Below are positions 7,426 through 59,829 of a stretch of DNA of 64,000 bases, in pieces. Below the pieces are notes generated by a model. The model made no database searches, had not been told where the DNA came from, and saw only the letters and a list, made by a program, of their open reading frames with translations. The DNA comes from Spirochaetes bacterium ADurb.BinA120. Lineage in GTDB: Bacteria; Spirochaetota; UBA4802; UBA5368. The stretch lies in NCBI GenBank assembly GCA_002069125.1, contig MVZN01000008.1, positions 5,643 through 69,642 of the forward strand, in the 5' to 3' direction. Both the position numbers and the translations under genes were made by a program. Each line of letters opens with the position of its first letter. Within the stretch, counting starts at the first letter, position 1.

Positions 7426-7702
7426 GTGCGAGGACCTCTGTGCCAAAATGAGTTACAGCGATATAGTACTTATGTCGATAACTAAAGAGAAAATATTTAT
7501 GTAAAAAAGGATCGTTTCCGGAATTCCGCGCCCGGCCTCGAGCGAAGATGGCGCTTTTCTTCCGCATGACGCGCGGTGGCACGAAAAGTAATTGCTTTTT
7601 ATAAAACGATGGATTCTTCTGAATTATGTCGCTTTTTGGCCCGTCGCGACGCACGAAGCTTAGGGTCGAAGCGAACAATCCGCCTCGGGACTGTAAACGG
7701 TG

Positions 7703-10801: not shown

Positions 10802-10807
10802 GGCGTC

Positions 10808-10840
10808 CCGGGAAGGCCCACGGCCTTCCCAAAAAAAAAC
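10808..10840 (+). terminator. GC-rich hairpin (gggaaggcc-cacg-ggccttccc) followed by an A9 tract
   Basis: Perfect 9-bp stem lies 7 nt after the TPR gene stop. It is followed by A9 rather than a U-tract on the plus transcript, so it is a non-canonical terminator or RNA-stability hairpin. Confidence 0.3.
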
Positions 10841-10868
10841 TTGTAAATCCCGCGGCCGGCCGTATTAT
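10841..10868 (+). promoter_or_regulatory. Candidate sigma70-type promoter (TTGTAA, 16 nt, TATTAT) upstream of the SNF2 helicase gene
   Basis: Hexamers lie at 10841-10846 and 10863-10868 with 16-nt spacing, about 110 nt upstream of the helicase start. Confidence 0.35.
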
Positions 10869-10979
10869 GTCGCATTCGCATAATCCAATCCAGATCGTTT
10901 TTGCCCGGGCATATCCAGGCGTGGCTCCTACAGGGGCCTTTTTTACGGCAGCGCCGGTATGCCGGGCGTGGAAAAAGGA

Positions 10980-13799: not shown

Positions 13800-14100
13800 A
13801 GGCCTCGATGTCCTTCTTCGAGGCATCGAGGAATTCTATGCCCATTCCGGCCTTGCTGTCTTCCGACTCATCCTCGCGTTTCCAGCGAATGACGCCCTTT
13901 AGATTTATGGGTTCCTCGCCGGGGACGTACAGCGCGAGTTCTACCCGGGAGCCCTCTTCCATAGGCTCGGGGGTGGTTATGAACAGCCCGCCCGAGCTGA
14001 GGTCGAATGTCGCGCTGAGCGTGAGCCCCTGGTCGGAATGGACCTCCGTTTTCATGCGTTTTTGAAGCCTGTTGTGTTTCCTTTTCTCTTCCATGATCAT
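13780..14100 (-). CDS. PilZ domain protein (c-di-GMP binding)
   Basis: RxxxR...DxSxGG pattern (KRKHNRLQKR ... DLSSGGLFI). It is 106 aa and overlaps the helicase 3' end by 20 nt on the convergent strand. Confidence 0.65.
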   Translation of the reverse strand: MIMEEKRKHNRLQKRMKTEVHSDQGLTLSATFDLSSGGLFITTPEPMEEGSRVELALYVPGEEPINLKGVIRWKREDESEDSKAGMGIEFLDASKKDIEAFKKHLS

Positions 14101-14322
14101 TTCCCCGATAACGAGTGTAACGCCCTCTCCGCCGCGGCCGTCAGAACGGAAAAGCCCGTATTCCGGCGTTTTCCGCCGCGGGCGGCCGATATTTCATTTC
14201 CCTGTTCCAGCCATTCGTAACTATATACATATTGACAAATAATACAATAATTTTTTTACTTCGTATCATGCGATAAGCGGAAGTCAAATGCGCATCGCTG
14301 TTCGATAAATACGGCGCGGATA

Positions 14323-14919
14323 ATGAACGACAGATCTCTTCCCATAATTTATCTGCAGAGGCAGGTGGTGTTCCCCTATTGCAACCTTTCATTCAGGTCG
14401 GCCGGCCGGAATCTCGCCGGAATAGGCCAGGGGGACAGGGTGGTGGCGCTTCCGGTGCGCACCGTGCTTGACGGCCTGTTTCCTCGAGGAAAGCCGGCCA
14501 CCCTCTCGGAGGTGGTGGAGATAAAGCGGGAGGAGGGGGCCTGGAACCTTCAGCTCAAGGGCATCTCCAGGGTGACCGTCCTTCGCGCAATGAAGTTCCG
14601 TACGGCCGAATACGAGCCTATCGAGGAGGCGGAGCGCCCCGGGCAGGAACGGCTGCGTGAGGGCCTCAGGAAGAAGTCACAGGAACTAATCTTTCTGATA
14701 AACGTCAACGAGTCCGACAAGCTGATCCATCTCCTCAATTTTCTGGTCAGTCTCACGCAGCTTGCAGATTTTGTATCGAATTATTTCATATTGAAATTTC
14801 CGCGAAGGTACGAGGTGTTCGCCGAGAGGGACGTCGAATTGAGGGCGAGAAAGCTATTGTTTGTGCTCGACGAGCTGATATCGGACCTCAAGGCCAAAAG
14901 GGAAAGGGAACGTCAATGA
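14323..14919 (+). CDS. Stand-alone Lon protease N-terminal (LON substrate-binding) domain protein
   Basis: LPIIYLQRQVVFPY start typical of the LON N domain, no ATPase or protease domain, 198 aa. Confidence 0.55.
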   Translation: MNDRSLPIIYLQRQVVFPYCNLSFRSAGRNLAGIGQGDRVVALPVRTVLDGLFPRGKPATLSEVVEIKREEGAWNLQLKGISRVTVLRAMKFRTAEYEPIEEAERPGQERLREGLRKKSQELIFLINVNESDKLIHLLNFLVSLTQLADFVSNYFILKFPRRYEVFAERDVELRARKLLFVLDELISDLKAKRERERQ

Positions 14920-15380
14920 AAAAGACAGTGGTAAACGACGATGTTTTCTACACCATTGCCTGGTCACGCCTTATAGAATACGATAAGCATTCGGCCTCGA
15001 GGATCCTTCCCGAGATGCCGGGCATACTCTGCCTCATGGAACGGCTTGCCGGCGGCGCGATGGAATATCTCATCTTCTATAGCTGCTGGCGTGACGGACT
15101 TCGAATGGCCCTAAAGAATTTTCTCGATCCGGACTTCAGCAAATTCCCCGAAATCAACGCCAGTATTAAAAGGCGGGGCCTTTTTTATAAATACACCGTT
15201 ATCGATACCAATATACAGGACATGCAGGACGTCATGTTCTGGCTGATCAGAACCTATAAGCCCGAGTTCAACGCGCTGGAGGGATTCGGGGACTCGAAGC
15301 GCTACAGGAACATATCGATACGGGAGATGGACCTAGGGGAAAACAGCGTAATAGAGCGGCTTCCAAAAACCGGGCTCTGA
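14916..15380 (+). CDS. Hypothetical protein, translationally coupled to the Lon-N domain gene (ATGA overlap)
   Basis: 154-aa ORF with a 4-nt start/stop overlap with the upstream gene. No recognisable motif. Confidence 0.45.
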   Translation: MKKTVVNDDVFYTIAWSRLIEYDKHSASRILPEMPGILCLMERLAGGAMEYLIFYSCWRDGLRMALKNFLDPDFSKFPEINASIKRRGLFYKYTVIDTNIQDMQDVMFWLIRTYKPEFNALEGFGDSKRYRNISIREMDLGENSVIERLPKTGL

Positions 15381-46856: not shown

Positions 46857-47187
46857 TCTCGATCTCCCGTATCAATTGGATCCGCCGGCTGTCCGGGGAT
46901 GGAGTTCAATCCCCGACCGGCGTAATAATTCCATCGGGCCCCATTGCGCGATGGTCCTTATTCAACATTCGATCGGCATTCGTCCCGGGACAACAAAAAA
47001 GCCACTACCGCTTTTCTCCCGAATGGCGAGGGAGTTAAAACGATACTGGCTTATCGAGCGACGGCCCGCTTACGGCTTCCGCCGGGGTTTCCGCGCCTTC
47101 CGCGCCGAGCTCCCGTCGCAAGAGGCGAAGTGGGCCTTCCCGCAATCTTCCAATCGATTAAAACGAAGCGAACGATTAGTTTGACGG

Positions 47188-47550
47188 TCAGCTTTTGTCA
47201 AGCGTTTTAATTCTGGTCTCCAGGTCGCATTCCATAGTAAATACTATGACCCTCTCGCCGGTGACGGTGCTGATATCGGTGTGCATGCTGCGGCAGGCGC
47301 AGCCGGTGATTTCCGCGAGTATCGCCGAGAGCATGTCTCGCGCCTCCTCGATGAGCCTGATGCGCACCTTCTTGATCAGGTCAAGGCCTTCACCGCTACT
47401 GGTGAGCCGGCTTTCGGCGCGCGTCATGACCCCCTTCATCCTCACGATCACCATGTCTTCGATGATATAGGTGCGCGTCTCGATGGGGCCGCGCCCCATG
47501 TATTCCTTTTCGAACTTGATCAGCGCCTCGCTGATCTCCGCCTCGATCAT
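47188..47550 (-). CDS. DUF2294 family protein
   Basis: About 120-aa conserved pattern (EISEALIKFEKEYMGRGP...DISTVTGERVIVF). Start at the internal Met MIEAEIS. Confidence 0.5.
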   Translation of the reverse strand: MIEAEISEALIKFEKEYMGRGPIETRTYIIEDMVIVRMKGVMTRAESRLTSSGEGLDLIKKVRIRLIEEARDMLSAILAEITGCACRSMHTDISTVTGERVIVFTMECDLETRIKTLDKS

Positions 47551-47789
47551 GCCCCTGCTTTTGGTCTTCACGGCCCCGTTCCTGTGCCTCGTACGGCGCA
47601 AACCGCCGTCGATATTCTCCGATTCACTTAGCACATTCCCGCCCGCGCCGTCCAGTTATTTTCCTTCCGAGGTGAGATTTGGGATATTCCGGAACGGCCG
47701 TCCGTGCGCATTCCGGATTCGAAAAACACCGTGCGGCCGGATGATATTCGCGCCCCGGCTCTGATGTATACGATTGACGCGATCGCCTG

Positions 47790-48105
47790 TCCGGGAAGCC
47801 CTAATAATCGATATATATATGCCCATGAAAAATATTTTTAATCATAATAGTTCAACGATTTAAATGCTCCGCTCCGCCAGCTCGCCCCGCGGCGCCGTGT
47901 TCCATGTGTGCTTTACCGCTGACTACTAACACGGAGGCCGGTGTTCTGCAATATCTGATAATATATTTATCATATTATATTATATGCATATATTATAAGA
48001 TGTATAAAATAATATATTAAATATCCTAATATTGTATGATTAAGAAAAAATAATAAATCACGGCGCATTAGCATTAAAATAATATTGACTAATCCAATGC
48101 CGGGT
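47790..48105. promoter_or_regulatory. About 320-bp AT-rich island upstream of the Fdh-like/hydrogenase operon
   Basis: A stretch at roughly 15-25% GC inside a roughly 62% GC background, with many short A/T palindromes (atatgcatat at 47982-47991) and a TTGACT-16 nt-TACGGT promoter-like pair at 48084-48111. No ORF on either strand. Confidence 0.4.
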
Positions 48106-48309
48106 CTACGGTTGTCGCGTGATAGACGTGTGAGGCGCAACAATCACAAGGCCGCCCGCCACGGGTACCGTAAGCTCTGCTTTAGGTCTTGTCGGTTTGC
48201 GTACAGCCGTCCGCGGCGCTTATGGGCCTGTCTTGTTGAACGGGTCGTAATTGCGGGCGGCGCTGTGCGCGACCGACAACGGAAATTCTAATGCGTGGAG
48301 TGTTATGGT

Positions 48310-50316
48310 ATGAATCAGAAACCTGGCGTGTGCACCTTCTGCGGCACGGGTTGCGGCCATTTCATCGGCGTCGAAAACAACAGGATCGCGCGTGTCTATC
48401 CCTCCCAAAACCATCCCGTAAGCAAGGGGCGTCTTTGCGTTCGGGGCTGGAACATCCACGAACTCCTCGATACTCCCGATAGAATTAAAAAACCGCTGAT
48501 TCGTTCCGACGGCCCTTTCGTGGAGGCGTCCTGCGACGAGGCGGTGGGCCGACTAATTGACTCGTTGAAGAAGTACCCTCCGGAATCCATCGGCTTTCTC
48601 GCCTCGCCCCGCTCCTCCAACGAGGAGCAGTATCTTCTAATGAAGCTCGCCCGTTCGGTCTTCGGGACCAACAACATCTGCTTGGACAGCGAATCGGGCC
48701 ATCGCGCAAGCCTCAATGTTCTGCACGCGGGTACCGGTATGGCTGGAATGCTCGGCTCGATCGAGGAGATATGCGGGGCGGAATTCATCCTTGTAGCCGG
48801 GATAGACATCACCCGGCAGAACCCCATAATAGGAAGCGAGATCCACATGGCCGCGCGGGCGGGGGCCATGGTGGTGACCATGGACAGCCGGCGCACCCAG
48901 ATCGCCAGGCTATCGAAGAAATTTTTACAGGTGAGGCCCGGCGCAAACAAGCTTGCCGTCCTCGCCCTGGCTAAAACCATATATGAGGAAAATCTCCACG
49001 ACCCATCGTTCCTCGAAGCGCATACGGAAGGCTTCGAGGGGTTCCGAAGGGCTTTCGGAAAGCTATCCGAAAACGAATTATACGAAAAGACCGGCCTTAA
49101 GGCCGACGAGATAAAAACGGTCGCCCGCCATCTGGCCAGGGCGAAATCGGCGATGGTATTCTTCTCCTCCGGCATCTCGGGCCTCGATGAGGACACAATA
49201 GGGTATATCTACAATCTCTTTCTTCTGGCCGGAAAAATCGGAAAGGAGGGCTGCGGCGTAAATCCGATAGCCGGGCTCAACAACCTTCAGGGCGGCTACG
49301 ATATGGGGCTGGCCCCGGACCTCCTCACCGGATTCCAGCCGCTTGCCGACGCGGCGACGGCTAAAAAATTCGAAAAGGAGTGGGGGACGGCACTTCCCTC
49401 CTCACCGGGAAAGCCGATCTACCGATCGCTGGCGGACCAGGCATCGGAACTGAAGGCGCTTGTCGTGGTTGACCACGACGAGGGGATAGTGCGCTACGCC
49501 GACGCCATCAAAAAGCTCGACTTCGTGGCATACATAGGGGCCTTCAAGAACCCATTTGCGGAGTACGCTCATGTGGTGCTTCCAATCGCCACCTACGTAC
49601 AGGAGGACGCCACATTCACGAACGCGGAACGGCGCATACAGCTCTCAACGAAAAAGATCGAACCGGAAGACGGGCTGCTCCCCGGATGGAAACTGTATTC
49701 GATGATAGCCGCGAAGGCCGGCAGGGCATGGAAATACGCAAAGGTATCGGAGGTGATGGACGAGATCGCCCGGCTTACTCCTGCGTACGCCGGAGTTACG
49801 CACGCAAAGCTTGCCGGCGGTTTCGGCCTGCAGTGGCCTGTGGACGATAAAAACCCGGGCGGAACCAGGCGCTTCGACCTCGCCAAAGCAGGGCGAAAGC
49901 TCGCTTTTTACGGGGTGAGCGATGTGTTTGAGGCCCCATCGGCCGACGACCGGTTTCCATTCCTCCTCATGGTGGGCAAGGCGCAGCATTTCTGGCACCA
50001 GAACAACCTCATGAAAAAGACGCACATCCCCATGCGCGAATATAACGCGACACTGATGGATTATCCCGAAGGCTACGTCGAGATATGCCCGCAAAGCGCG
50101 AAGGAGATAGGGGTGCGCGACCGCTGGCCTGTGCGAGTGGTATCGCCTCACGGGGAGATGCGCGTGTCGGCTAGGGTTTCGGACGACGTGAGCCCCAATA
50201 CGGCCTATGCGCCCTACTTTGTACAGGAAATGATATCGCGTTTTTTGCTGGGGCACACCGAGGTTCTAAGGCAGGGAGAAGACGCAACGATTCCAGTAAG
50301 GATTGAGAAGGTATGA
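48310..50316 (+). CDS. Molybdopterin oxidoreductase, FdhF (formate dehydrogenase H)-like catalytic-type subunit lacking the Cys/Sec Mo ligand
   Basis: N-terminal 4Fe-4S motif CTFCGTGCG, MGD-binding regions and C-terminal Mo-bisPGD domain. Aligning the E. coli FdhF segment NNVDCCARVUHGPSVAGLHQSVG with NNICLDSESGHRASLNVLHAGTG puts Gly at the U140 position. There is no in-frame TGA. GTG 48295 is an alternative start. Confidence 0.75.
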   Translation: MNQKPGVCTFCGTGCGHFIGVENNRIARVYPSQNHPVSKGRLCVRGWNIHELLDTPDRIKKPLIRSDGPFVEASCDEAVGRLIDSLKKYPPESIGFLASPRSSNEEQYLLMKLARSVFGTNNICLDSESGHRASLNVLHAGTGMAGMLGSIEEICGAEFILVAGIDITRQNPIIGSEIHMAARAGAMVVTMDSRRTQIARLSKKFLQVRPGANKLAVLALAKTIYEENLHDPSFLEAHTEGFEGFRRAFGKLSENELYEKTGLKADEIKTVARHLARAKSAMVFFSSGISGLDEDTIGYIYNLFLLAGKIGKEGCGVNPIAGLNNLQGGYDMGLAPDLLTGFQPLADAATAKKFEKEWGTALPSSPGKPIYRSLADQASELKALVVVDHDEGIVRYADAIKKLDFVAYIGAFKNPFAEYAHVVLPIATYVQEDATFTNAERRIQLSTKKIEPEDGLLPGWKLYSMIAAKAGRAWKYAKVSEVMDEIARLTPAYAGVTHAKLAGGFGLQWPVDDKNPGGTRRFDLAKAGRKLAFYGVSDVFEAPSADDRFPFLLMVGKAQHFWHQNNLMKKTHIPMREYNATLMDYPEGYVEICPQSAKEIGVRDRWPVRVVSPHGEMRVSARVSDDVSPNTAYAPYFVQEMISRFLLGHTEVLRQGEDATIPVRIEKV

Positions 50317-51380
50317 CCATGTTCCTTATCAAGAAATCCGACGTCGGTAAAATTGCAGAGGAGCTCGCACGGGACCACCAGGTGTACGGCCCCATGATAG
50401 AGAAGGGCTCGGGACAGACCTTTTTCGACCGGGCGGACGATGTGTCCGAAATAAGCCTCTCGGCGCCCATCCCGTCGAATCCGCCCAAATCGGTCGTTTT
50501 TCCGCAGATGGAACGAGTCCTTGCCTACGAGTATGACAGGCCTAAAAATTCGGTAAAGATCGAGCCCGATTACAAGGTCGAGCCCAAGGCCCTTGTGGGG
50601 CTTCGTCCCTGCGACCTGGCGGGCATGTTATGCCTGGACCGCTTCTTTATGGGACAGGAATTCGTCGACGAGGTTTATCTCGCGCACCGCAAAAAGATGT
50701 TCATCGTCACCAACACCTGCGTCGCGCCGTTCAAGCAGTGCTTCTGCGTGTGCACGGACAGCGGCCCGGCGGCAAGCGAGGGCTATGACCTTAACCTCAC
50801 GGACTTAGGCGATGAGTTTCTGGTGGAGACCGGTTCCGAAAAGGGCGCAGTATTCGCGGCCGGGCTCGGCCTTGCGGCCGCCGACGACTCGCACCTGGCG
50901 AGGAAAAAGAAGATAGTGGACAAATCGATCTCTCTCTTCGAGGACATCGCGGTCGATTCAAAGGCCTGGATCTCGCGCGTGATGAACCGCGTAACCACCG
51001 GCTTCGTGAAGGAGGAGGTCTGGGAATACATCGGCGACCAGTGCTTCGAGTGCGGGGCCTGCTCCTTCGTGTGCCCGTCCTGCTCGTGCTTCAACATCGC
51101 CGACGTAACCAACCCGGAATGCGAGGGCTGCGCCGACCGTCTGCGCTCCTGGGATTCGTGCTCCTATGAGGGATATTCGCGCATGGCGGGCGGGCACAAT
51201 CCGCGAAAACCGGTCGAGGACCGGCGCAACAAGCGCTTTTTCTGCAAGCTGTCATATTCGCAGATGAAGAAATATCTCAGGCCGGGATGCGTGGGCTGCG
51301 GGCGCTGCGCCTGGGTGTGTCCCGGCGATATCGGCCTGCCGAACGTCGTGACCTATGTCAGAAGGGAAATTACGAGGTAG
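50313..51380 (+). CDS. Fe-S subunit, AsrA/HydB (sulfhydrogenase beta)-like
   Basis: Multiple Cys clusters (CFCVC; CFECGACSFVCPSCSC; CVGCGRCAWVCP). ATGA overlap with the upstream gene. Confidence 0.65.
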   Translation: MTMFLIKKSDVGKIAEELARDHQVYGPMIEKGSGQTFFDRADDVSEISLSAPIPSNPPKSVVFPQMERVLAYEYDRPKNSVKIEPDYKVEPKALVGLRPCDLAGMLCLDRFFMGQEFVDEVYLAHRKKMFIVTNTCVAPFKQCFCVCTDSGPAASEGYDLNLTDLGDEFLVETGSEKGAVFAAGLGLAAADDSHLARKKKIVDKSISLFEDIAVDSKAWISRVMNRVTTGFVKEEVWEYIGDQCFECGACSFVCPSCSCFNIADVTNPECEGCADRLRSWDSCSYEGYSRMAGGHNPRKPVEDRRNKRFFCKLSYSQMKKYLRPGCVGCGRCAWVCPGDIGLPNVVTYVRREITR

Positions 51381-51389
51381 GGGAATCCT

Positions 51390-52241
51390 ATGAGCCAGGT
51401 ACTGAACATCCAGGACGGTAAGATAGTCACCGTGCCCGAGGTCGCCACGATAGAGGAAATAAGGGACGAGATCCGCGAGGTCAAGACCTTCTACCTCTCG
51501 ATCGACAACAGGGAGATATGGAGCGGCTTCAAGTACAAATCGGGGCAGTTCATCATGCTGACGGTTTTCGGTTCGGGCGAGTTCGCCGTTTCGCTCCCGC
51601 CCAGCCCCGAAAACGACCGGTTTCACATAACGGTTCGGACCGTGGGCAAGGTGACGAGCGCCCTCCACGCCCTCAAGCCCGGCGACAAGGTGGGCATAAG
51701 AGGGCCGTTTGGAAACGGCTTTCCCTTCGAGGAGTTCAAGGGGAAAAACTTAGTGTACGTGGCGGGCGGCATAGGGCTCATCCCGCTTCGTTCGTCCATC
51801 GTCCATGCGCTCCAGCACAAGAAAGACTTTGGCAGGGTGCTGGTGCTGCACGGCGCCCGTACGCCCGACGACCTCATGTATAAGGAAAATCTTAAAGAGT
51901 GGCAGAGCTTCGAAGGCTTCGAGACCTACATCACCGTGGATGTCTCGACTCCGGGCTGGACGGGCGAGACAGGCTTCGTCCATACGCTTTTCGACAAGGC
52001 GAACCTCCCCATCGACAATACGGTCGCCTTCGTATGCGGTCCCCCGGTGATGTTCAATACGGTGATAGGGGAGCTCATGAAGCGGGGCCTTTCGGACGAA
52101 AACATATATTCAACACTCGAGCGGCACATGAAATGCGGAGTGGGAAAGTGCCAGCACTGCGCGGTCGGAAGGACCCTGGTCTGCACCGACGGGCCGGTGT
52201 ACACCTACCGGCAGATAAAGACCCTGGGCGAGGAGATATAG
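51390..52241 (+). CDS. FAD/NAD(P)-binding oxidoreductase with C-terminal 2Fe-2S, AsrB/HydG/PyrK-like
   Basis: FAD site (RFHITVRTVGKVT), NAD(P) site (VYVAGGIGLIPL) and C-terminal CxxxxCxxC (CGVGKCQHCAV). Confidence 0.7.
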   Translation: MSQVLNIQDGKIVTVPEVATIEEIRDEIREVKTFYLSIDNREIWSGFKYKSGQFIMLTVFGSGEFAVSLPPSPENDRFHITVRTVGKVTSALHALKPGDKVGIRGPFGNGFPFEEFKGKNLVYVAGGIGLIPLRSSIVHALQHKKDFGRVLVLHGARTPDDLMYKENLKEWQSFEGFETYITVDVSTPGWTGETGFVHTLFDKANLPIDNTVAFVCGPPVMFNTVIGELMKRGLSDENIYSTLERHMKCGVGKCQHCAVGRTLVCTDGPVYTYRQIKTLGEEI

Positions 52242-52262
52242 CCCGCCGGGGACGGAAAGAGC

Positions 52263-52778
52263 ATGAAGGAACAGGCGGTGAACATCGTGGACGACATCCG
52301 CAGCGCACTCTCGCGAAAGACCTGCATCGTGGGCGTGGGGAACACCCTGCTCGGCGATGATGGCGCGGGCGTGCTTCTCGTCGAGACGCTCAGGCGCGAC
52401 GGCGCGGGCGAACGCGTACACTTAGTCAACGCGGAGGATATCATCGAGAGTCATGCTTTCGAAATCGCGGAAGGCGACTGGGGCACCGTGATAGTGGTGG
52501 ACGCGGTGAGTTTCGGCGGAAGCCCCGGAGACGTAATGTTCGGGGACTTTTCTGAGACAGGCGATTTGCTGAACGATTTCTCGACGCATAAGCTTTCGCT
52601 CAGGCTTTCCGAGTCGATCTGGCGGCAAAGCGGAAAAAAGACCTTTCTCCTCGGCATCCAGCCGGAGGCCGTGGATTTCGGCGAGGGGCTCTCGGAGGCC
52701 GTGCGCAGGAGCGTCGATACGCTCGGCGGCATACTACTCGAAGCAGTTAAACAGCACCCCGAAGGAGCGTGTGTATGA
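52263..52778 (+). CDS. [NiFe]-hydrogenase maturation endopeptidase (HycI/HyaD family)
   Basis: GVGNTLLGDDGAGV motif and 171 aa. Confidence 0.8.
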   Translation: MKEQAVNIVDDIRSALSRKTCIVGVGNTLLGDDGAGVLLVETLRRDGAGERVHLVNAEDIIESHAFEIAEGDWGTVIVVDAVSFGGSPGDVMFGDFSETGDLLNDFSTHKLSLRLSESIWRQSGKKTFLLGIQPEAVDFGEGLSEAVRRSVDTLGGILLEAVKQHPEGACV

Positions 52779-54634
52779 GTGACCTTTATGGAAAACTGAT
52801 TCTCGCGATGGCGATACTCCTCTGTTCGGCGGTCGTTGTGCCGTTTATCGCCGAAAAACGCAAGCTGGCGGGCTGGCTCAACTTCATCTTCGTTGCGGTG
52901 GCGGGCGCCATCCTCCTTTCGATCAGCTACAGCGTGATATTCGTGAAGTCCCTTCCGTCGCGGCTCGTTTCGGTGGGCCCTCTGGATATCTACTTTCTGC
53001 TGGACGGCTTTTCAGGGTTTTTCCTGGGGATAATTTCGCTCATGGCGATCGTAAGCGCGTTCTATTCGATAGAATACATGGAGCATTACGGCGATTACGG
53101 CCTCAGGAGCTACTACGCCAATTATCCAATTTTCGTACTGGGCATGGCGGGCATCGTTACGGTCGACGATCTTACTACGGGCTTTTCCATCGCATGGCAG
53201 GCGATGACCATTACGAGCTATTTTCTCGTGCGCTTCGAACATCGAAAAAAAGAGATCGTAAAGGCCGCCAACAAGTACCTCGTCCTCATGGAGCTTGCAT
53301 GGCTCTTCATAGTGATCGCCGCCCTCGCGGCGGGAAGCTCCATGGGCGATTCGGTGCACTCGGTCACCCGCCTCATCGGCGAGACCGGGGGCGCGCTTCC
53401 CTATCTCATCTACGGACTCGTCTTCCTGGGGTTCGGCTTTAAGGCCGCGGTCTTTCCGTTCGGACAGATGTGGCTGCCGGACGCGCACTCCATCGCCCCT
53501 TCGCCCATAAGCGCGCTCCTTTCGGGGGTGATGATAAAGACCGGCGTCTATGGGATCATCCGATCGTTTTTCTGGATGGTGCCGCACTCCGATACCTTTC
53601 ACTTCAGCGGGGCCTTCTGGGGCGCGCTCATCGCCTCCTTCGGCGTGGTCACGCTCTTTATCGGCACGGTGCAGTCCATGAAGCAGAGCCAGTCGAAGCG
53701 GCTGCTGGCTTATTCCTCGATAGGGCAGGTGGGCTATATCATCTTCGGAATCGGCGCCGCCCTCTTCATGGTAAACGCCGAGAGCGCCGCGCTTAAAATG
53801 CTCGGCCTCATAGCGCTCGTCGGGGTGGTGTATCACATACTCAATCACGCGGTGTTCAAGGGGCTGCTCTTTCTTACAAGCGGCAGCGTGCTCTACAGCA
53901 CCGGGACCAAGGACCTCAACAGGTTAGGCGGGCTTATAAACCTCATGCCGGTCACCGCGTTTGTCGCCGGCATAGCCTCCCTGTCCATCTCGGGGGTCCC
54001 TCCGTTCAGCGGTTTCGTGAGCAAATGGACGCTTGTGTCCACTTCGCTTCTTGCCGGAAGCGAGGTGCTGTTCCTTGTCATCTTCGGCATCGTGGCGCTC
54101 TTTACGAGCGCGGTGACGCTTGCGTGTTATGTGAAATTTTTTGGCATGACCTTCACCTCGGCGGGGGCCGAGTGGGGGGTGGGCAGGGAGGTCAGGGAGG
54201 TCCCCGCGGGCATGCTTATCCCCAAGCTCTTTCTTACGGCGCTGTGCCTGCTCCAGGGGCTCATCCCCTTCTTCTACTTCCAGACCATAATAGGCATATT
54301 CGCGGGTTCCGGGGGCTCCCTCATTTCGGCGGCTTTCAGGAACCTGAACGTGCAGGGCCACGTATTCAACTCGGCCATGGGCGTGTCGGTGGGAATTCCG
54401 GGGCTTTCCGCCGTCTCGTCGATCGCGGTTCCCGCGGTGCTTCTTGCGGTTTTCGCGGCGGCGTTCGTCGTCGTAGCTTTTTTAAGAAAGTCCGGCGGAT
54501 CGAAGGAACGCGAGGTCCCGACATGGCTCTGCGGTTATCAGGACCTGCACGATAAAAACAGGTACCGCGACAAGAGCATGTTCGCGGCGCTAAAAAACCT
54601 TCTGTATTGGACCGGCGGAAACGTAAAGGAATAA
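52775..54634 (+). CDS. Hydrogenase membrane subunit, HycC/HyfB (NuoL/antiporter-like) family
   Basis: About 14 TM helices with the NuoL/MrpA-like core. The ATG at 52775 has a GGAG RBS and overlaps the protease stop. Confidence 0.8.
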   Translation: MSDLYGKLILAMAILLCSAVVVPFIAEKRKLAGWLNFIFVAVAGAILLSISYSVIFVKSLPSRLVSVGPLDIYFLLDGFSGFFLGIISLMAIVSAFYSIEYMEHYGDYGLRSYYANYPIFVLGMAGIVTVDDLTTGFSIAWQAMTITSYFLVRFEHRKKEIVKAANKYLVLMELAWLFIVIAALAAGSSMGDSVHSVTRLIGETGGALPYLIYGLVFLGFGFKAAVFPFGQMWLPDAHSIAPSPISALLSGVMIKTGVYGIIRSFFWMVPHSDTFHFSGAFWGALIASFGVVTLFIGTVQSMKQSQSKRLLAYSSIGQVGYIIFGIGAALFMVNAESAALKMLGLIALVGVVYHILNHAVFKGLLFLTSGSVLYSTGTKDLNRLGGLINLMPVTAFVAGIASLSISGVPPFSGFVSKWTLVSTSLLAGSEVLFLVIFGIVALFTSAVTLACYVKFFGMTFTSAGAEWGVGREVREVPAGMLIPKLFLTALCLLQGLIPFFYFQTIIGIFAGSGGSLISAAFRNLNVQGHVFNSAMGVSVGIPGLSAVSSIAVPAVLLAVFAAAFVVVAFLRKSGGSKEREVPTWLCGYQDLHDKNRYRDKSMFAALKNLLYWTGGNVKE

Positions 54635-54665
54635 AAGGGGCCATCCTTATTTAACGAGGTACGCT

Positions 54666-56339
54666 ATGCCAGGCATTGAAGAGATCAAAAACGGCTTGAA
54701 GAAGGGTTTTAAGGACGCCGTCGTCTCGGTCGAGGAGCAGAACCCGACGCGGATGTTCGTTGATATAAAAAGCGCCAAGGTGCGCGATGTTTCCAACGCG
54801 ATCGTCGCGATGGGCGGGCGCTATCTTGTAAGCGTGGGCTACGACAATATCGCGCGTGACGGCACGCTGGGGATGATCCACACCTTCGGCTTCGACCGCG
54901 ACGGCATTTATCTGGCCCTTCGCACGTCGGTGCCCGAATCGAAGCCCGAGATGGACTCCATAACGCCGGATATTCCAAACGCCGGCTGGTCCGAGCGGGA
55001 ATATATGGACCTGTTGGGGATGAGGTTTTCCGGGCACCCCAAACCGAAGAGGCTCGTTCTTGCCGACGACTGGCCCGAGGGCGTGCATCCCCTTCGAAAG
55101 GACATCCCCTGGAACCTCATGCCGCCGGCGGCGGAGGACGTCGCCTACCAACTCGACGAGTGCCCCGAGGGCTGCAGTATAGTCCCGCTCGGGCCGTATC
55201 ATCCCACCCTGCACGAGCCGGAGCACTTCGCCATCTACGTCGATGGGGAGACAGTAAAGGGGTGCGATTACCGCGGTTTTATGACGCACCGCGGAATCGA
55301 AAAGCTGTGCCAGACGCAGCTTACGTACAATGAGGTGCCGTTCGTCGCGGAGCGCATCTGCGGCATCTGCGGCTCGGTCCACGCCACCAGCTATTCGCAG
55401 GCGGTTGAGCTTGCGGGCGGCATAAAAATTTCCCGCAGGGCCGAGTACATCCGCACCATAATGCTCGAGATCGAGCGCATACACTCGCACCTATTGTGGC
55501 TTGGGGTCGCAGGCCACCTCATTGGTTTCGACACGGTCTTCATGCAGTCGTGGCGCATTCGCGAGCCCGTCATGTGGCTCGGAGAGAGGATCACCGGAAA
55601 CAGGAAGACCTATGGGATGATCGTTATCGGCGGAGTGCGCCGGGACATTACGGACGAAATGAAAGACGATATACGGAATGTGATCGGGACGATCGAAAAG
55701 GAGCTTCTGACCGTTCAGAAGGCGATACAGGGCGACACGGCGATTCACAGGCGAACAAGGGGCGTCGGTTACATCTCCACCGATGATACGAAGCTCTGGA
55801 GCCTGGTAGGCCCGGTCGCCAGGGCGCGGAACGTGGACATCGACGTTCGCCGCGACTACCCGTACGCCGCCTACGATGAGATGAAGTTCGACGTTCCGGT
55901 CTTCGATTCAAACGACGTGTGGGCCACCGTGCTGGTTCGCCTGGTCGAGACCTTCGAGGCGATCAAGATCATACGCCAGTGCCTGGACAAAATGCCGAAC
56001 GACGGCCCGGTTCTTACCGAGCTCGATGCGCCCATCCCGGCGCTGAAGCACGGCCTGGCGGCGGTGGAGGCCCCGCGCGGCGAGGTGGTGCACTATGTCA
56101 TCACCGGCGAAAAGAACGCCCCCGAGCGCTGGCGGGTGCGCGCCCCTACCTATCCCAATCTCCAGGGGGTCCCGCTCATGCTTTTGAACAACCAGCTCGC
56201 CGACGTGCCGATCATCATCGGGAGCATAGACCCATGCTTTTCGTGCACCGACCGGATGGAGGTAGTGGACCTGAGATCGGGTGCGGCGAAGATCGCCTCG
56301 CAGGTCGAGCTCGAAGAGCTCTCACGGAACAAAAGGTAG
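54666..56339 (+). CDS. Group-4 [NiFe]-hydrogenase large subunit, fused NuoC-NuoD type (HycE-like)
   Basis: N-terminal NuoC-like domain, Ni-Fe site cysteines RICGICGSVH and DPCFSCTDR, and a C-terminal extension consistent with HycI-type processing. Confidence 0.85.
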   Translation: MPGIEEIKNGLKKGFKDAVVSVEEQNPTRMFVDIKSAKVRDVSNAIVAMGGRYLVSVGYDNIARDGTLGMIHTFGFDRDGIYLALRTSVPESKPEMDSITPDIPNAGWSEREYMDLLGMRFSGHPKPKRLVLADDWPEGVHPLRKDIPWNLMPPAAEDVAYQLDECPEGCSIVPLGPYHPTLHEPEHFAIYVDGETVKGCDYRGFMTHRGIEKLCQTQLTYNEVPFVAERICGICGSVHATSYSQAVELAGGIKISRRAEYIRTIMLEIERIHSHLLWLGVAGHLIGFDTVFMQSWRIREPVMWLGERITGNRKTYGMIVIGGVRRDITDEMKDDIRNVIGTIEKELLTVQKAIQGDTAIHRRTRGVGYISTDDTKLWSLVGPVARARNVDIDVRRDYPYAAYDEMKFDVPVFDSNDVWATVLVRLVETFEAIKIIRQCLDKMPNDGPVLTELDAPIPALKHGLAAVEAPRGEVVHYVITGEKNAPERWRVRAPTYPNLQGVPLMLLNNQLADVPIIIGSIDPCFSCTDRMEVVDLRSGAAKIASQVELEELSRNKR

Positions 56340-56349
56340 AGGAAAGACC

Positions 56350-57249
56350 ATGGATATCCTGACAGCCGTGATCAACGCGTTGATTTTCCTGGCGCTGGCC
56401 CCGTTTTTCGAGGGTGTCATACGAAGGCTTTACGCCAGGGTGCAGTCCCGAAAGGGGCCGCCGCTCATTCAGCCCTATCTCGATCTCCTTAAGCTTCTGG
56501 GCAAGGAGACGCTTTCGGCCGGAAACTGGGCCTTCAGGATCGCACCGATGATGGCGCTGGCGTCCATAATTACGGTGGTGTCGATAATGCCCCTCGGCTA
56601 CAGGGCGGGATACCTGACCCAATACGGCGACATCATCACGGTCATATATCTGCTCATGCTCGGCGGGGTGTCGGTGCTTCTGGGGGCGCTCTCCAGCAAA
56701 AACACATACGCCATGTTAGGGGCGAGCCGCGAGATGGTGACCATGATAATGATCGAGCCGGTCCTGGCCATGACCCTTATATTAGGCGCGCTGAAGGCGA
56801 AAAGCCTTGCGATCGACGCGAGCCTTTCGAGCTCCCTTAACGGCGCTTACGGCATTTCGATGGTGCTCATGCTCGTCGTTTTTCTGATGGCGCTCCAGGC
56901 CTTTGTGGCCAGGCAGCCCTTCGATATTGCCGAGGCGGAGGTCGAGATTATGGAGGGCCCGTTTATCGAATACAGCGGCCCGGGGCTGGCGCTCTTCAAG
57001 TATTACATGATGATTAAGCAGATGTTCTACGCGGCGCTTTTCGCTGCGGTGTTCGTTCCGCTGGTCAACACCGGCTATTATATCGTGGATGTGGCGGTCC
57101 AGCTTGTCGAGATTCTGGCGGTCTTCGTGCTGATCTCGCTCCTCGGCTCGACCAACCCGCGCTTGCGCATAGACCAGGCGGTTAAGTATTATGCCGTGCT
57201 AATATTCGCTTCGCTCGCGGCCGTGGGGCTTACGGCGTACGGAATTTAG
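56350..57249 (+). CDS. Hydrogenase membrane subunit HycD/NuoH-like
   Basis: Polytopic NuoH-family membrane protein with RKGPPLIQPYLDLLKLL. GAGGA RBS. Confidence 0.8.
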   Translation: MDILTAVINALIFLALAPFFEGVIRRLYARVQSRKGPPLIQPYLDLLKLLGKETLSAGNWAFRIAPMMALASIITVVSIMPLGYRAGYLTQYGDIITVIYLLMLGGVSVLLGALSSKNTYAMLGASREMVTMIMIEPVLAMTLILGALKAKSLAIDASLSSSLNGAYGISMVLMLVVFLMALQAFVARQPFDIAEAEVEIMEGPFIEYSGPGLALFKYYMMIKQMFYAALFAAVFVPLVNTGYYIVDVAVQLVEILAVFVLISLLGSTNPRLRIDQAVKYYAVLIFASLAAVGLTAYGI

Positions 57250-57376
57250 AAGATTAAAGATTAGAAGATTAGAAGATTGGAAGATTTGAAGATTATGGAT
57301 AGCATAATGACCGAATTCAAGACGAGTGATTTCCTGCTCAATAGATCTTTTAATCTTGAATCTTAAATCTTAAATC
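57250..57376 (+). repeat. Intergenic element A: direct array of 6 AAGATTA-like heptamers, roughly 47-nt spacer, inverted array of about 4 heptamers
   Basis: The direct array aagattaaagattagaagattagaagattggaagatttgaagatta (57250-57296) starts at the hycD-like stop. The inverted array atcttttaatcttgaatcttaaatcttaaatcc (57344-57376) ends just before the AAGGAG RBS of the hycF-like gene. Confidence 0.6.
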
Positions 57377-57390
57377 CAAGGAGAAACACC

Positions 57391-57936
57391 GTGTGGCTGA
57401 CAAGTAAGATAAAACAGGTATTCATGGTGGCCAAACCCGGAGTGGTGACGCTTCAATATCCTTTCGAGCCGCGCCCGGCTCCGGAGAATTTTCGGGGCCA
57501 GCCCTACTGGGACCATCACAAGTGCATTGGATGCGGCGGCTGTGCGGCCCACTGTCCGGCGCGCACCATACTTGTGCGGGACCTTTGCCAGGAGCTTCGA
57601 GTGATGGTCTACGACGGCTCCCGATGCACCTACTGCGGAAGGTGCGCCGACGTGTGTCCCGAGGACGCCATCACCATGACGGCAAGCTACGAGCTGGCTA
57701 CCGGCAGCAAAGAGGACGTAAACGAGACCATGGAGCTCTTTATGGCGACCTGTCAGCGATGCGGCCGTTGTTACGACCACGAGATCACCAACGCGATCGA
57801 TCGCATGTCGAGGATAGGGTTCAAGTACGACAGCCTGGAGATGAGGGCGGTGGTGCCGGTGAGCTCCGAGCAGTTCGACATGAAGCTGTATGAAAAAACC
57901 GAAAAAATCAAAAGGCCGGAAAAGGCGGGAGAATAG
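57391..57936 (+). CDS. Hydrogenase Fe-S subunit HycF/NuoI-like (two 4Fe-4S)
   Basis: CIGCGGCAAHCP and CTYCGRCADVCP ferredoxin motifs plus a further CQRCGRC. GTG start with an AAGGAG RBS. Confidence 0.8.
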   Translation: MWLTSKIKQVFMVAKPGVVTLQYPFEPRPAPENFRGQPYWDHHKCIGCGGCAAHCPARTILVRDLCQELRVMVYDGSRCTYCGRCADVCPEDAITMTASYELATGSKEDVNETMELFMATCQRCGRCYDHEITNAIDRMSRIGFKYDSLEMRAVVPVSSEQFDMKLYEKTEKIKRPEKAGE

Positions 57937-57938
57937 CC

Positions 57939-58469
57939 ATGCTTGCCAACCTGATCAAAAAGGCGTTTCCCAGATCCCTGTGGGTTTATCATTGCAACTC
58001 GGGAGCGTGCAACGGCTGCGACATCGAGATCCTGAACGTGCTGACCCCTTATTACGATATCGAGCGTTTCGGCATGAAGCTTGTGGGCTCGCCCCGGCAC
58101 GCCGATGTCATGCTCATTTCCGGCGCCGTGACGAGACCGACTCTTCCGATAGTCAAGAAGGCCTATGAAGCGATTCCCGCCCCGAAACTTGTCTTCGGAG
58201 TTGGTTCGTGCGCCGTGGGCGGGGGCTGCTGGTTCGACTGCTACAATGTTACGGGCGGCGCGGACAAGGCCGTGCCGATCGATTATTACATTCCCGGCTG
58301 CCCGCCGCGTCCGGAGGCGATTATCTACGGGGTGGCGCTCGCGCTTGGACTTGTCGAAAAGAAGGTCGCCCCCATAGAGCTCAAGCAGATGGAGTTTCCG
58401 ATCGACATGTACGAGCGGAACAAGGCCTGGGAAGAGCGCAATGTCATATACGAGTTGATTAAAGATTAA
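57939..58469 (+). CDS. Group-4 [NiFe]-hydrogenase small subunit HycG/NuoB-like
   Basis: NuoB-family cysteines (CNGCD; GSCAVGGG; CPPRP). Confidence 0.85.
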   Translation: MLANLIKKAFPRSLWVYHCNSGACNGCDIEILNVLTPYYDIERFGMKLVGSPRHADVMLISGAVTRPTLPIVKKAYEAIPAPKLVFGVGSCAVGGGCWFDCYNVTGGADKAVPIDYYIPGCPPRPEAIIYGVALALGLVEKKVAPIELKQMEFPIDMYERNKAWEERNVIYELIKD

Positions 58470-58578
58470 TAGATTAAAGATTATAAGATTAAAGATAATC
58501 GGCGGCATGACGCCTGGTTTGCCGGAAAGGACTTGCCGCCAGGCGAATGTCTTAATCTTGAACTCATAATCTTTAATA
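58457..58578 (+). repeat. Intergenic element B: direct array of about 5 AAGATTA heptamers overlapping the hycG-like stop, roughly 51-nt GC-rich spacer hairpin, inverted array of about 2 heptamers
   Basis: Direct array ttgattaaagattaatagattaaagattataagattaaagataatc. The spacer ggcggcatgacgcctggtttgccggaaaggacttgccgccagg is self-complementary. Inverted array cttaatcttgaactcataatctttaata. Same design as element A. Confidence 0.6.
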
Positions 58579-58604
58579 CGCAATCCATAACCCTGGAGCG
58601 AGAC

Positions 58605-59006
58605 ATGGCAAAAAAGATACTCTTGGTTGATGACGACAGCGACCTGGTGGCCAGCCTTTCGCAGGCGCTTACAATGAATGGATATGAGGTGTCGGTTGCC
58701 TACAGCGGCGCCGAGGGCCTCGCGAGACTTCTTGAGGTAAGGCCGGACCTCATGATTCTCGACGTTATGATGGAGACCGACACCGCCGGGTTCGAAATGA
58801 CCTATCAGATCCGCGGTACGCGGCCCACGTCCAAATATCGAGACGTGAAGGACACCCCAATAATCATGCTGACAGCCATAAACCAGGTCACCAATTCCAG
58901 GTTCTCGCTAAACGAAGGCCAGAGCTTTCTTCCCGGCGTGAACGATTTCCTCACCAAACCGGTGAAGATCGACGAACTACTCGATAAGGTGAAAAAGCAG
59001 ATTTAG
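58605..59006 (+). CDS. Single-domain response regulator receiver (CheY-like)
   Basis: KILLVDDD...DLMILDVMM...KP receiver signature; 133 aa; no output domain. Confidence 0.8.
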   Translation: MAKKILLVDDDSDLVASLSQALTMNGYEVSVAYSGAEGLARLLEVRPDLMILDVMMETDTAGFEMTYQIRGTRPTSKYRDVKDTPIIMLTAINQVTNSRFSLNEGQSFLPGVNDFLTKPVKIDELLDKVKKQI

Positions 59007-59073
59007 CGGAAAAATGCCTTGCCCTCTGGGCGCCTCTGGTTTCACGATACTACACGTTATGGATAATCGTATA

Positions 59074-59103
59074 AGGGGATATCATTGGATATCCCCCTTT
59101 TCT
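59074..59103 (+). terminator. Candidate intrinsic terminator (ggggatatc-attg-gatatcccc followed by CTTTTCT)
   Basis: Perfect 9-bp stem with a 4-nt loop, about 70 nt after the receiver stop, followed by a T-rich tract. Confidence 0.45.
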
Positions 59104-59118
59104 ATGGCGGGCTATTCG

Positions 59119-59829
59119 ATGAAAATAAGGCATCTGGTATTCATCCTGCTTGTGGCGGTTGTCGCGGGCTCCCTGTACAACAGCCAGCGGCTGTACCACT
59201 GGTACCTCGCCGCGTATTACCAGCGCTTCCTCGGTGAAGATCGGGAAAAATCCATAGAAAGGGCGCGCTCGCTTTACAGGGATGAGCGCTATGAAGAGCT
59301 CGATGCCTATACCGGACGCATGAGGGTCCTCTACCCGGACAATTCCGACCTGCGCCGCCTGAAAGGGTTCGCGATGATTAAAACCGGCCGCGAATCGGAG
59401 GGGGCGCACATGGTTATATCCTCGTTGAGAAAGAACGAGGCCCTTCTTTCGGTTGCCAGTGCCATCGAAATATTGTTCAAGGAAGGGGAGTACGCGGACC
59501 TCGACGACATCATCTCCAGCCACGGGACCATGGGCGACCCGTATCTTCAATATATTCACGGCGTTTCGCTTTATCATGTCAAAAAATACGCTGAGGCGGA
59601 GCGGCGCCTTGCAGGAGCGTTGAGCGCCGGGAAACAGGATTACGACACGCTGTACTACCTTGGTCTGGCCCGTGAGAAAAACGGCAGAACGGTCGAGGCG
59701 CTCGCCGCGATCGAAAAGGCCTATGCGATAGACCCTATACGCCCCGAGGCCCGAAAGGCCCTGGTTCGTCTCTATCGAGTGACAAAACAATACGACAGGG
59801 CGGAAAGAATTCCGCGGAGGACACCATGA
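59119..59829 (+). CDS. TPR-repeat protein with N-terminal membrane anchor
   Basis: Hydrophobic N-terminus (LVFILLVAVVAGSL) and TPR repeats (YYLGLAREKNGRTVEAL). Start uncertain (59059, 59104 or 59119). The longer antisense ORF 59050..59790 was rejected. Confidence 0.5.
   Translation: MKIRHLVFILLVAVVAGSLYNSQRLYHWYLAAYYQRFLGEDREKSIERARSLYRDERYEELDAYTGRMRVLYPDNSDLRRLKGFAMIKTGRESEGAHMVISSLRKNEALLSVASAIEILFKEGEYADLDDIISSHGTMGDPYLQYIHGVSLYHVKKYAEAERRLAGALSAGKQDYDTLYYLGLAREKNGRTVEALAAIEKAYAIDPIRPEARKALVRLYRVTKQYDRAERIPRRTP

Follow-up and report, generated by a model that had tools for sequence, protein, structure and literature searches.

Organisation of the operon

The stretch of DNA analysed here (64,000 nt, hereafter the window) comes from a metagenome-assembled genome (MAG) of an uncultured Spirochaetota. 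Between positions 48295/48310 and 58469 it carries nine open reading frames (ORFs), all on the + strand, every one of which could be assigned with Pfam and NCBIfam. Together they would encode an eight-subunit membrane [NiFe] hydrogenase complex and its HycI protease, and we lean, with somewhat more confidence than doubt, towards a complex that exchanges electrons with NAD(P)H rather than with formate. The same had been proposed in a first-pass annotation of this DNA, and to judge from gene content and residue motifs it is the best-supported reading.

The first gene (48310..50316) encodes a molybdopterin-oxidoreductase-like subunit with the fold of the formate dehydrogenase (Fdh) FdhH, containing the domains Molybdop_Fe4S4, Molybdopterin and Molydop_binding. 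The protein has 668 aa when counted from the ATG at 48310, and an alternative GTG start lies at 48295. It is followed by the gene for the beta subunit (50313..51380), an iron-sulfur (Fe-S) protein homologous to the beta subunit of sulfhydrogenase I (SHI) and to AsrA, with a Fer4_22 domain and AsrA-, ShyB- and HydB-like matches, and by the gene for the gamma subunit (51390..52241), a homolog of SHI gamma and AsrB that combines FAD_binding_6, NAD_binding_1 and DHODB_Fe-S_bind (PF00970, PF00175, PF10418) with HydG-, ShyC- and AsrB-like matches. Next comes a HycI-type maturation endopeptidase for processing of the large subunit (52263..52778; TIGR00072, 99.9 bits, above the cut-off). The remaining five genes encode an antiporter-like membrane subunit of the HycC/HyfB/NuoL family (52775..54634; Proton_antipo_M), the [NiFe] large subunit, a HycE-type NuoC-NuoD fusion with the NiFeSe_Hases N-terminal motif (54666..56339), a HycD/NuoH-type membrane subunit (56350..57249; NADHdh), a HycF/NuoI-type 2x[4Fe-4S] subunit (57391..57936; assigned with Pfam/NCBIfam and BLASTP) and a HycG/NuoB-type small subunit with the proximal [4Fe-4S] cluster (57939..58469; Oxidored_q6).

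This gene content and order agree with the first-pass annotation, coordinates included. The tight coupling of the genes that it also described stands in part. The ATGA overlaps at 50313 and 52775 are both present in the sequence, but a repeat-rich gap of 141 nt separates hycD from hycF, so that not all junctions are tight. Moreover, the public gene calls on identical contigs, which start the Fdh-like gene at ATG 48310, the antiporter-like gene at 52775 and hycD at 56350, place the beta start at ATG 50319, and this start would abolish the overlap at 50313. No small membrane ORF was found in the intergenic gaps of the operon.

The hydrogenase core

In the large subunit the motifs RICGICGSVH and DPCFSCTDR are intact and are followed by a C-terminal extension of 28 aa, which would be the substrate of HycI. 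Its best solved homolog is HycE of Escherichia coli (PDB 7Z0S chain E, group 4a; E=1.6e-119). The BLASTP identities to the E. coli proteins are 27% for HycI, 25% for HycC, 38% for HycE, 31% for HycD, 36% for HycF and 50% for HycG. Judged by these similarities and motifs, the core of the type found in formate hydrogenlyase 1 (FHL-1) is complete, with a HycE carrying the Ni-Fe ligands and a cleavable C-terminus, HycG, HycF, HycD and one HycC. In BLASTP at E<=1e-3, neither HycB nor HycH of E. coli finds a counterpart among the nine operon proteins. The operon has one Proton_antipo_M protein and one 2x[4Fe-4S] protein, and the HyfE-like subunit is without a counterpart. The possibility that an extra Fe-S cluster in HycF stands in for HycB was considered and rejected, since the C-terminal CxxCxR motif of the operon subunit is also present in E. 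coli HycF.

The functional residues of the antiporter-like subunit were read from an alignment with E. coli HycC and NuoL/M/N for four orthologs (those of the window and of loci L001, L004 and L007). In transmembrane helix 5 (TM5) NuoL/M/N and E. coli HycC share a conserved Glu (E144 in NuoL), and all four orthologs have a Gln (AWQAM) in its place. The His-His-Lys of TM8 and the Lys of TM12 are kept in all four, and the Lys of TM7 in three, its place being taken in L007 by Leu, as in E. coli HycC.

The beta and gamma subunits

The best solved homologs of both proteins belong to SHI of Pyrococcus furiosus, namely PDB 9NEZ chain B for beta (E=1.7e-38), with which all Cys motifs align, and chain C for gamma (E=1.8e-56), with which the GGxGxxP nucleotide motif and the C-terminal C-x4-C-x2-C...C [2Fe-2S] motif align. 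The identity to the P. furiosus proteins is ~29% for beta and ~39% for gamma. That the pair is a nicotinamide module of the soluble sulfhydrogenase type, as the first-pass annotation had it, is thus borne out, with NAD(P)H as the predicted substrate, the Fe-S, flavin adenine dinucleotide (FAD) and NAD motifs being intact throughout. A single FAD of the FNR/PyrK type is carried by the pair, and no operon protein matches the NuoE or NuoF families in Pfam/NCBIfam. Gamma would accordingly provide the NAD(P)H site, with an FNR/PyrK-type FAD, an NAD(P)H domain and a C-terminal [2Fe-2S] cluster, and the Fe-S clusters of beta would form the hub at which gamma, the Fdh-like subunit and HycF meet. In P. 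furiosus hydrogenase I (group 3b) the same module, with aligning Fe-S cysteines, FAD/NAD domains and [2Fe-2S] motif, sits on the cytoplasmic alpha/delta subunits, whereas in the operon it sits on a membrane group 4 core. Beta and gamma are unrelated to the known electron-transfer subunits of formate dehydrogenases (FdnH/I, FdsB/G and FdhB).

The top NCBIfam match of beta is AsrA, with 146 bits against a cut-off of 323, and gamma scores 189 bits against AsrB, whose cut-off is 289. The HydB/HydG/ShyB/ShyC models give 136-143 bits against cut-offs of 690-750 and 200-206 bits against 600-650. As the scores lie far below the cut-offs of all the HydB/G, ShyB/C and AsrA/B equivalogs, beta and gamma form a separate subfamily and are not orthologs of any named enzyme; the beta family is large even at >=65% identity. 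From the AsrA and AsrB matches one might suppose that the two subunits supply electrons to a reductase of sulfite or polysulfide, after the example of AsrABC or of the in vitro sulfur reduction by sulfhydrogenase. We regard this as barely credible. Besides the low scores, the gene for the siroheme catalytic subunit AsrC is absent from the operon and its 10-kb flanks, both in the window and at five related loci, and the two genes are in every case flanked by the Fdh-like gene on one side and the hydrogenase genes on the other.

The formate dehydrogenase-like subunit

The first protein of the operon is 100% identical to an annotated protein of an uncultured Spirochaetota MAG, which is described in the public record as "formate dehydrogenase major subunit". 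It was aligned to three solved Fdhs with HMMER and within a 98-sequence MAFFT alignment. The [4Fe-4S] ligands C13/C16/C20/C48 are kept and are invariant, in that alignment as well as among close homologs. The position of the molybdenum ligand, Sec/Cys140 (Sec, selenocysteine), is however occupied by Gly135 and no conserved Cys or Sec emerged on alignment, in agreement with the loss of the ligand claimed by the first-pass annotation. The catalytic Arg333 is lost too, its position being taken by Ala326. Moreover Leu328 stands at the position of Gln335 and Arg50 at that of Lys44, and the canonical NPLRGQNNVQG reads NPIAGLNNLQG.

These replacements are not peculiar to the window. When the query and its 120 close homologs are taken together, Gly occupies the ligand position in 119 of the 121 sequences, H136 is kept in 117 and R137 in 119, and at the Arg position Thr, Ala, Ser or Val is found in all 121 and Arg in none. 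All 71 canonical Fdhs compared keep both the C/U-H ligand and the catalytic Arg. Invariance of at least 95% among these 71 sequences defined a reference set of 102 alignment columns. The query keeps 60 of them, the Terriglobales form 68 and E. coli FdhH 88. The 42 columns changed in the query include N175D, H180N, GE(N)P->DH, Q427I, T434F, D477G and TGR->VGK, and the motifs concerned (N..H, GE(N)P, Q..T, D477 and TGR), which are invariant in canonical Fdhs, are taken by us to be contacts of the pterin guanine dinucleotide.

As regards its ancestry, the first-pass annotation had likened the subunit to the Mo-less NuoG of complex I, but it groups with FdhH and FdhA. The Fdh-alpha model TIGR01591 gives 450.8 bits, below its cut-off of 666.25, and the NuoG model 129 bits against a cut-off of 470. 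The AlphaFold (AF2) model, with a predicted local distance difference test score (pLDDT) of 86, has TM-scores of 0.86-0.89 to Fdhs (1AA6, 9KTL, 8RQZ) as opposed to 0.69 to NuoG. Furthermore the protein begins directly with the Molybdop_Fe4S4 domain, and the N-terminal Fe-S domain of the NuoG type was not found with Pfam.

The complex resembles E. coli FHL-1 (Hyd-3, HycBCDEFG plus FdhH; 7Z0S/7Z0T; group 4a) in its HycC/D/E/F/G/I homologs (25-50% identity), in the NuoC-NuoD-fused large subunit with cleavable C-terminus, in the two-subunit membrane arm and in having an FdhH-fold subunit with one [4Fe-4S] cluster. A conventional FHL could therefore be imagined in which the Fdh-like subunit oxidises formate and beta and gamma replace the wiring of HycB or add an outlet to NAD(P)+. 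This agrees with the best sequence family of the subunit (Fdh-alpha), with its fold, with the closeness of the core to Hyd-3 and with the public annotation, but it is highly improbable given that Sec/Cys140 and Arg333 are absent clade-wide and kept in all canonical sequences, that His141 is lost as well in the Aminicenantes and Terriglobales forms, that the TIGR01591 score remains below the cut-off and that no focA, pfl or fdhD gene lies nearby. The operon also departs from FHL-1 in lacking HycB and HycH, in its C-E-D-F-G order with the protease upstream, in adding SHI-type beta and gamma subunits and in having an Fdh-like subunit devoid of Sec/Cys, Arg and cofactor motifs. On this comparison the predicted complex fails two defining features of an FHL, HycB and a competent FdhH. 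The Fdh-like subunit would thus be non-catalytic for formate, and the public "formate dehydrogenase / FHL" annotations of the operon family are likely to be misleading. Metabolic reconstructions that infer formate-driven H2 production from this operon family are probably wrong.

Loss of the catalytic pair was also seen outside the close homologs. About half of the 150 best 50%-identity representatives obtained in a search with the clade profile (P0373-P0509) are without the Cys/Arg pair, and many of these reach ~900 aa and are extended at the N-terminus by ~220 aa, which may give them a likeness to NuoG or FdsA. The Cys-less proteins of the Fdh fold are therefore much more diverse than the nine-gene operon family.

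Distribution of the operon and probable origin of the input module

A scan of GTDB gave at least 600 pattern matches, from which 80 loci were kept, and the species counts are therefore lower bounds. Among these 80, loci L001-L007 have the beta and gamma genes, have the hyc genes where the contig is long enough and encode an Fdh-like protein with neither Cys/Sec nor Arg. At L008-L080 every canonical Fdh listed has CARL[C/U]H and NPLRGQNNVQG. The survey of synteny suggested in the first-pass annotation revealed the identical nine-gene order in at least four phyla: in Spirochaetota (L001, L002, L089), Aminicenantes (L004, L006), Terriglobales/Acidobacteriia (L088) and Verrucomicrobiota (L086), as well as in a further lineage (L092). 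The contigs of L003, L005 and L007 are shorter and break off within the operon, whose leading genes they carry in unchanged order. The flanking genes are different at every nine-gene locus, and such an arrangement is far beyond chance. The protease in the middle of the operon and the C-E-D-F-G order, which had been thought atypical, turn out to be the conserved norm across the loci of the family. Neither in the literature on Saccharicenans/Aminicenantes hydrogenases nor in that on group 4a of Acidobacteria or on complex I evolution did we find a description of the nine-gene operon.

The Fdh-like proteins of the operons are monophyletic in 100/100 neighbour-joining (NJ) bootstraps. Their canonical sister group was not resolved in the NJ tree (support at most 40%), which is probably affected by long-branch attraction to a YjgC-like sequence. 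Canonical Cys/Sec Fdhs adjoining beta/gamma-like genes, with no hydrogenase, were found at L008-L012, L014, L020, L023, L060 and L069. The Fdhs of such FdhA-beta-gamma trios rank with the canonical sequences that come nearest to the Fdh-like clade. At L008 (Thermodesulfovibrionia; 6918-12065) MoaA is encoded directly upstream of FdhA-beta-gamma, and at L011 (Clostridium; 9983-15346) beta and gamma are fused into a protein of 643 aa that is followed by MobA and FdhD. The best canonical representative against the profile of the degenerate clade (P0370) is flanked by gamma, MobA and beta. The trios at L008, L011 and L090 share with the operon the fdh-beta-gamma gene order but differ in that they keep CARL[C/U]H and NPLRGQNNVQG, have MoaA, MobA or FdhD as neighbours and are free of hydrogenase genes. 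The beta and gamma subunits of the operon are equidistant from the Fdh-linked proteins and from those of P. furiosus SHI (~29-30% and 38-41% identity, respectively).

Most likely the three-gene input module came from a soluble FdhA-beta-gamma Fdh of the NAD(P) type that was joined to a Hyc core, after which the formate chemistry would have been lost. This derivation rests on shared gene order and on nearest-distance and profile ranking and not on a supported tree. The trio itself is probably an undescribed type of soluble NAD(P)-dependent formate dehydrogenase, and no paper characterising it was found in the literature.

Proposed electron path and the third branch

In the complex that we favour, electrons would pass from NAD(P)H to the FAD and the [2Fe-2S] cluster of gamma, then through the Fe-S clusters of beta to HycF, HycG and the Ni-Fe site, or in the reverse direction, the order of contacts along this path being the one we infer. 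The Fdh-like subunit would survive as a relic serving in structure or docking and would hold an off-path or bridging cluster, like the Mo-less molybdopterin-fold domain of NuoG. With E0' values of -320 mV for NAD(P)H and -414 mV for H2, the evolution of H2 is ~18 kJ/mol uphill under standard conditions and becomes exergonic only below ~60-70 Pa H2. The membrane arm would therefore either spend ion-motive force to drive the release of H2 in fermenters or conserve energy when H2 reduces NAD(P)+.

A different solution to the uphill step would be a three-terminal bifurcating or confurcating complex, with an Fe-S network that forks into arms ending at the Ni-Fe site, at gamma and at the Fdh-like subunit. 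In such a complex the Fdh-like subunit would serve as a catalytic or binding site for a third substrate (or for ferredoxin), which would make the evolution of H2 from NAD(P)H thermodynamically feasible. This has been proposed for related group 4b clusters from AlphaFold models of the complexes (PMC13582414). It also fits the universal retention of a subunit with intact fold and [4Fe-4S] ligands and the good conservation of the pocket residues G135, H136 and R137 within subclades. We consider it possible but unlikely, for the reasons that follow.

Three subclades were compared, those of Spirochaetota, Aminicenantes and Terriglobales/Verrucomicrobiota. All three keep 48 of the 102 canonical columns and 31 are kept in only some. 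Among the 54 altered columns, five show the same new residue in the three subclades, and 18 have lost the canonical residue in every subclade without a replacement common to all three. The triplet at the ligand site is G-H-R in Spirochaetota, G-[L/Q]-E in Aminicenantes and Y-[C/S/G]-N in Terriglobales, so that no ligand or catalytic residue is common to the subclades, and further variants occur among the 50%-identity representatives. A Cys shifted by one position as the ligand in the Terriglobales subclade was rejected, as the position varies between C, S and G. Since the replacement residues differ between subclades, a vestigial site is suggested. The Fdh-like protein is moreover the least conserved redox subunit, with 45% identity to the Aminicenantes orthologs as against 62-75% for beta, gamma, HycE, HycF and HycG, and thus evolves faster than the others, and its changes fall on the very motifs that are invariant in canonical Fdhs. 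Among the bifurcating flavin types that we know of, none of the GltD/NfnB, EtfAB or NuoF kind was detected in the operon with Pfam/NCBIfam. Neither is the operon accompanied by genes for synthesis of the molybdenum cofactor (Moco), unlike the canonical trios. No Moco, fdhD, formate-transport (focA) or pfl gene was found within 10 kb of any of the Hyc-linked operons examined.

The pattern is what one would expect if a former active site decays while selection goes on maintaining the structure, and it does not fit a shared new catalytic centre, so that the third branch formed by the Fdh-like subunit is probably vestigial. It is no proof, since the pocket residues are well conserved within each subclade. 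We doubt, and give rather little weight to, a further version in which the subunit has been remodelled into a site, cofactor-less or with an unligated metal, for a third redox partner X, making the complex a confurcating hydrogenase coupled to ion-motive force. If true, it would have the architecture of bifurcation without a known type of bifurcating flavin.

Several points weigh against an NAD(P)H-linked hydrogenase with a vestigial third branch. No operon has lost the Fdh-like gene, the predicted fold of its product is intact and the cluster cysteines are invariant, and within each subclade the altered pocket is strongly conserved, from which it would seem that the subunit clearly does something. 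Loss of the pterin cofactor is suggested by the motif changes, and arsenite oxidase is a molybdenum-bis(pterin guanine dinucleotide) enzyme that works without a protein ligand to Mo. The exchange of Glu for Gln in TM5 leaves the ion coupling uncertain, and it may be modified. Finally, the AlphaFold model of Takano et al. 2026 (PMC13582414), with three Fe-S branches, would favour bifurcation.

Comparison with known systems

Two in silico descriptions already contain this combination of genes, so that its novelty is lower than the first-pass annotation assumed. Takano et al. (PMC13582414) reported in 2026 that, in group 4b clusters, roughly every second Fdh subunit is without Cys/Sec and co-occurs with homologs of SHI beta and gamma. 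On the basis of AlphaFold models that show three Fe-S branches they proposed bifurcation or confurcation involving an unknown third substrate. The operon shares with these clusters the group 4 hydrogenase, the Fdh without Mo ligand and the P. furiosus SHI beta and gamma homologs. Their typical cluster (PMC13582414), however, combines a HyfE-like subunit with several antiporter subunits and several ferredoxins, whereas the window operon has one antiporter-like subunit, one HycF and no HyfE. Their clusters are assigned to group 4b, and the closest solved homolog of the large subunit of the window is the group 4a HycE. They favour bifurcation, and the residue analysis presented here favours a vestigial third branch.

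The other description is that of the Saganbacteria RX5A group 4 hydrogenase by Matheus Carnevali et al. 2019 (PMC6349859, Supplementary Note 5), who called it "enigmatic" and left its function undetermined. In that cluster too, asrA-like and asrB-like genes and homologs of NuoB/C/D/H/I occur together with a gene resembling fdhH, whose product has one Fe-S domain and resisted assignment to the Fdhs. The cluster differs in having a CooF-like ferredoxin and Mrp antiporter subunits, and its active site was not analysed there. The window operon can be seen as a streamlined nine-gene version, with one antiporter-like subunit and without HyfE, extra ferredoxin or Mrp. What is new with respect to these notes is the evidence for a probably vestigial third branch, the link to canonical FdhA-beta-gamma trios with Moco neighbours and the finding that the public annotations of this family are likely to mislead.

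Like complex I, the predicted enzyme has a nicotinamide-dependent flavin module and what is probably a cofactor-less relic of the molybdopterin fold on a core homologous to NuoB/C/D/I/H/L. The first-pass annotation had taken this as a sign of an evolutionary intermediate between FHL and complex I, which our results do not support. The flavin module is of the FNR/PyrK plus AsrA type and not homologous to NuoE/NuoF, the N-terminal Fe-S domain of NuoG is absent, the Ni-Fe site is kept where complex I has its quinone site, and NuoA/J/K/M/N are missing. Because the operon is without NuoE/F and the NuoG N-terminal domain, the resemblance is, on the evidence of these families, a parallel (convergent) recruitment of an input module, an analogy and not an ancestry. 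If the proposed function is true, the operon would replay independently how complex I came by its nicotinamide input module and its dead subunit of the formate-dehydrogenase fold.

The disposal of NAD(P)H as H2 in fermenters and syntrophs is usually ascribed to electron-confurcating [FeFe] hydrogenases. If NAD(P)H does feed directly into a membrane [NiFe] hydrogenase, this would be a different solution, which could either spend or make ion-motive force. The operon family is abundant in metagenomes of Spirochaetota, Aminicenantes, soil Terriglobales and Verrucomicrobiota. Moreover the compact operon (10 kb, nine genes) is suited to heterologous expression and cryo-electron microscopy.

Intergenic and flanking regions

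The intergenic region upstream of the Fdh-like gene (47780..48309, + strand) is the putative promoter and 5' untranslated region of the operon, as read from the sequence and its promoter-like matches, which are clustered at 47955-48020. It begins with an AT-rich island (~47780-48090) that has overlapping sigma-70-like hexamers on both strands and continues with a GC-rich leader of ~200 nt before the Fdh-like start. An Rfam scan of 47000-59200 gave nothing credible, the sole match having E=0.99.

Octamer arrays of the type (A/G/T)GAAGATT or TAAAGATT are present in both intergenic regions around hycF-hycG, at 57247-57375 and 58458-58578 of the window. Inverted AATCTT copies follow the arrays after ~50 nt, and the pattern has 6 matches where 0.3 are expected. 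Both arrays fold at the RNA level into long imperfect hairpins (-35.8 and -38.7 kcal/mol, z -3.1 and -3.8, respectively). In the otherwise identical contig L081 the coordinates are offset by 15 nt after hycG, and the array may thus vary in length. These repeats may be an element of intercistronic processing, stability or attenuation.

The flanks of the operon in the window, including 10 further window genes, contain unrelated housekeeping genes and no hyp, Moco, formate-transport or pfl gene. Directly downstream of hycG lies a gene for a single-domain response regulator (58605..59006, + strand; receiver domain). A receiver-domain gene is also found 3' of hycG in the Spirochaetota-type locus L089 (20065-20469), where it is followed by a Cache-HAMP-HisKA sensor kinase. 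At L094 an Fdh-like/beta pair has as neighbours a Rex-like gene, a Cache kinase and a sigma-54 activator. These neighbouring regulators hint at a redox- or signal-dependent regulation of the operon, with which the response regulator of the window is possibly associated.

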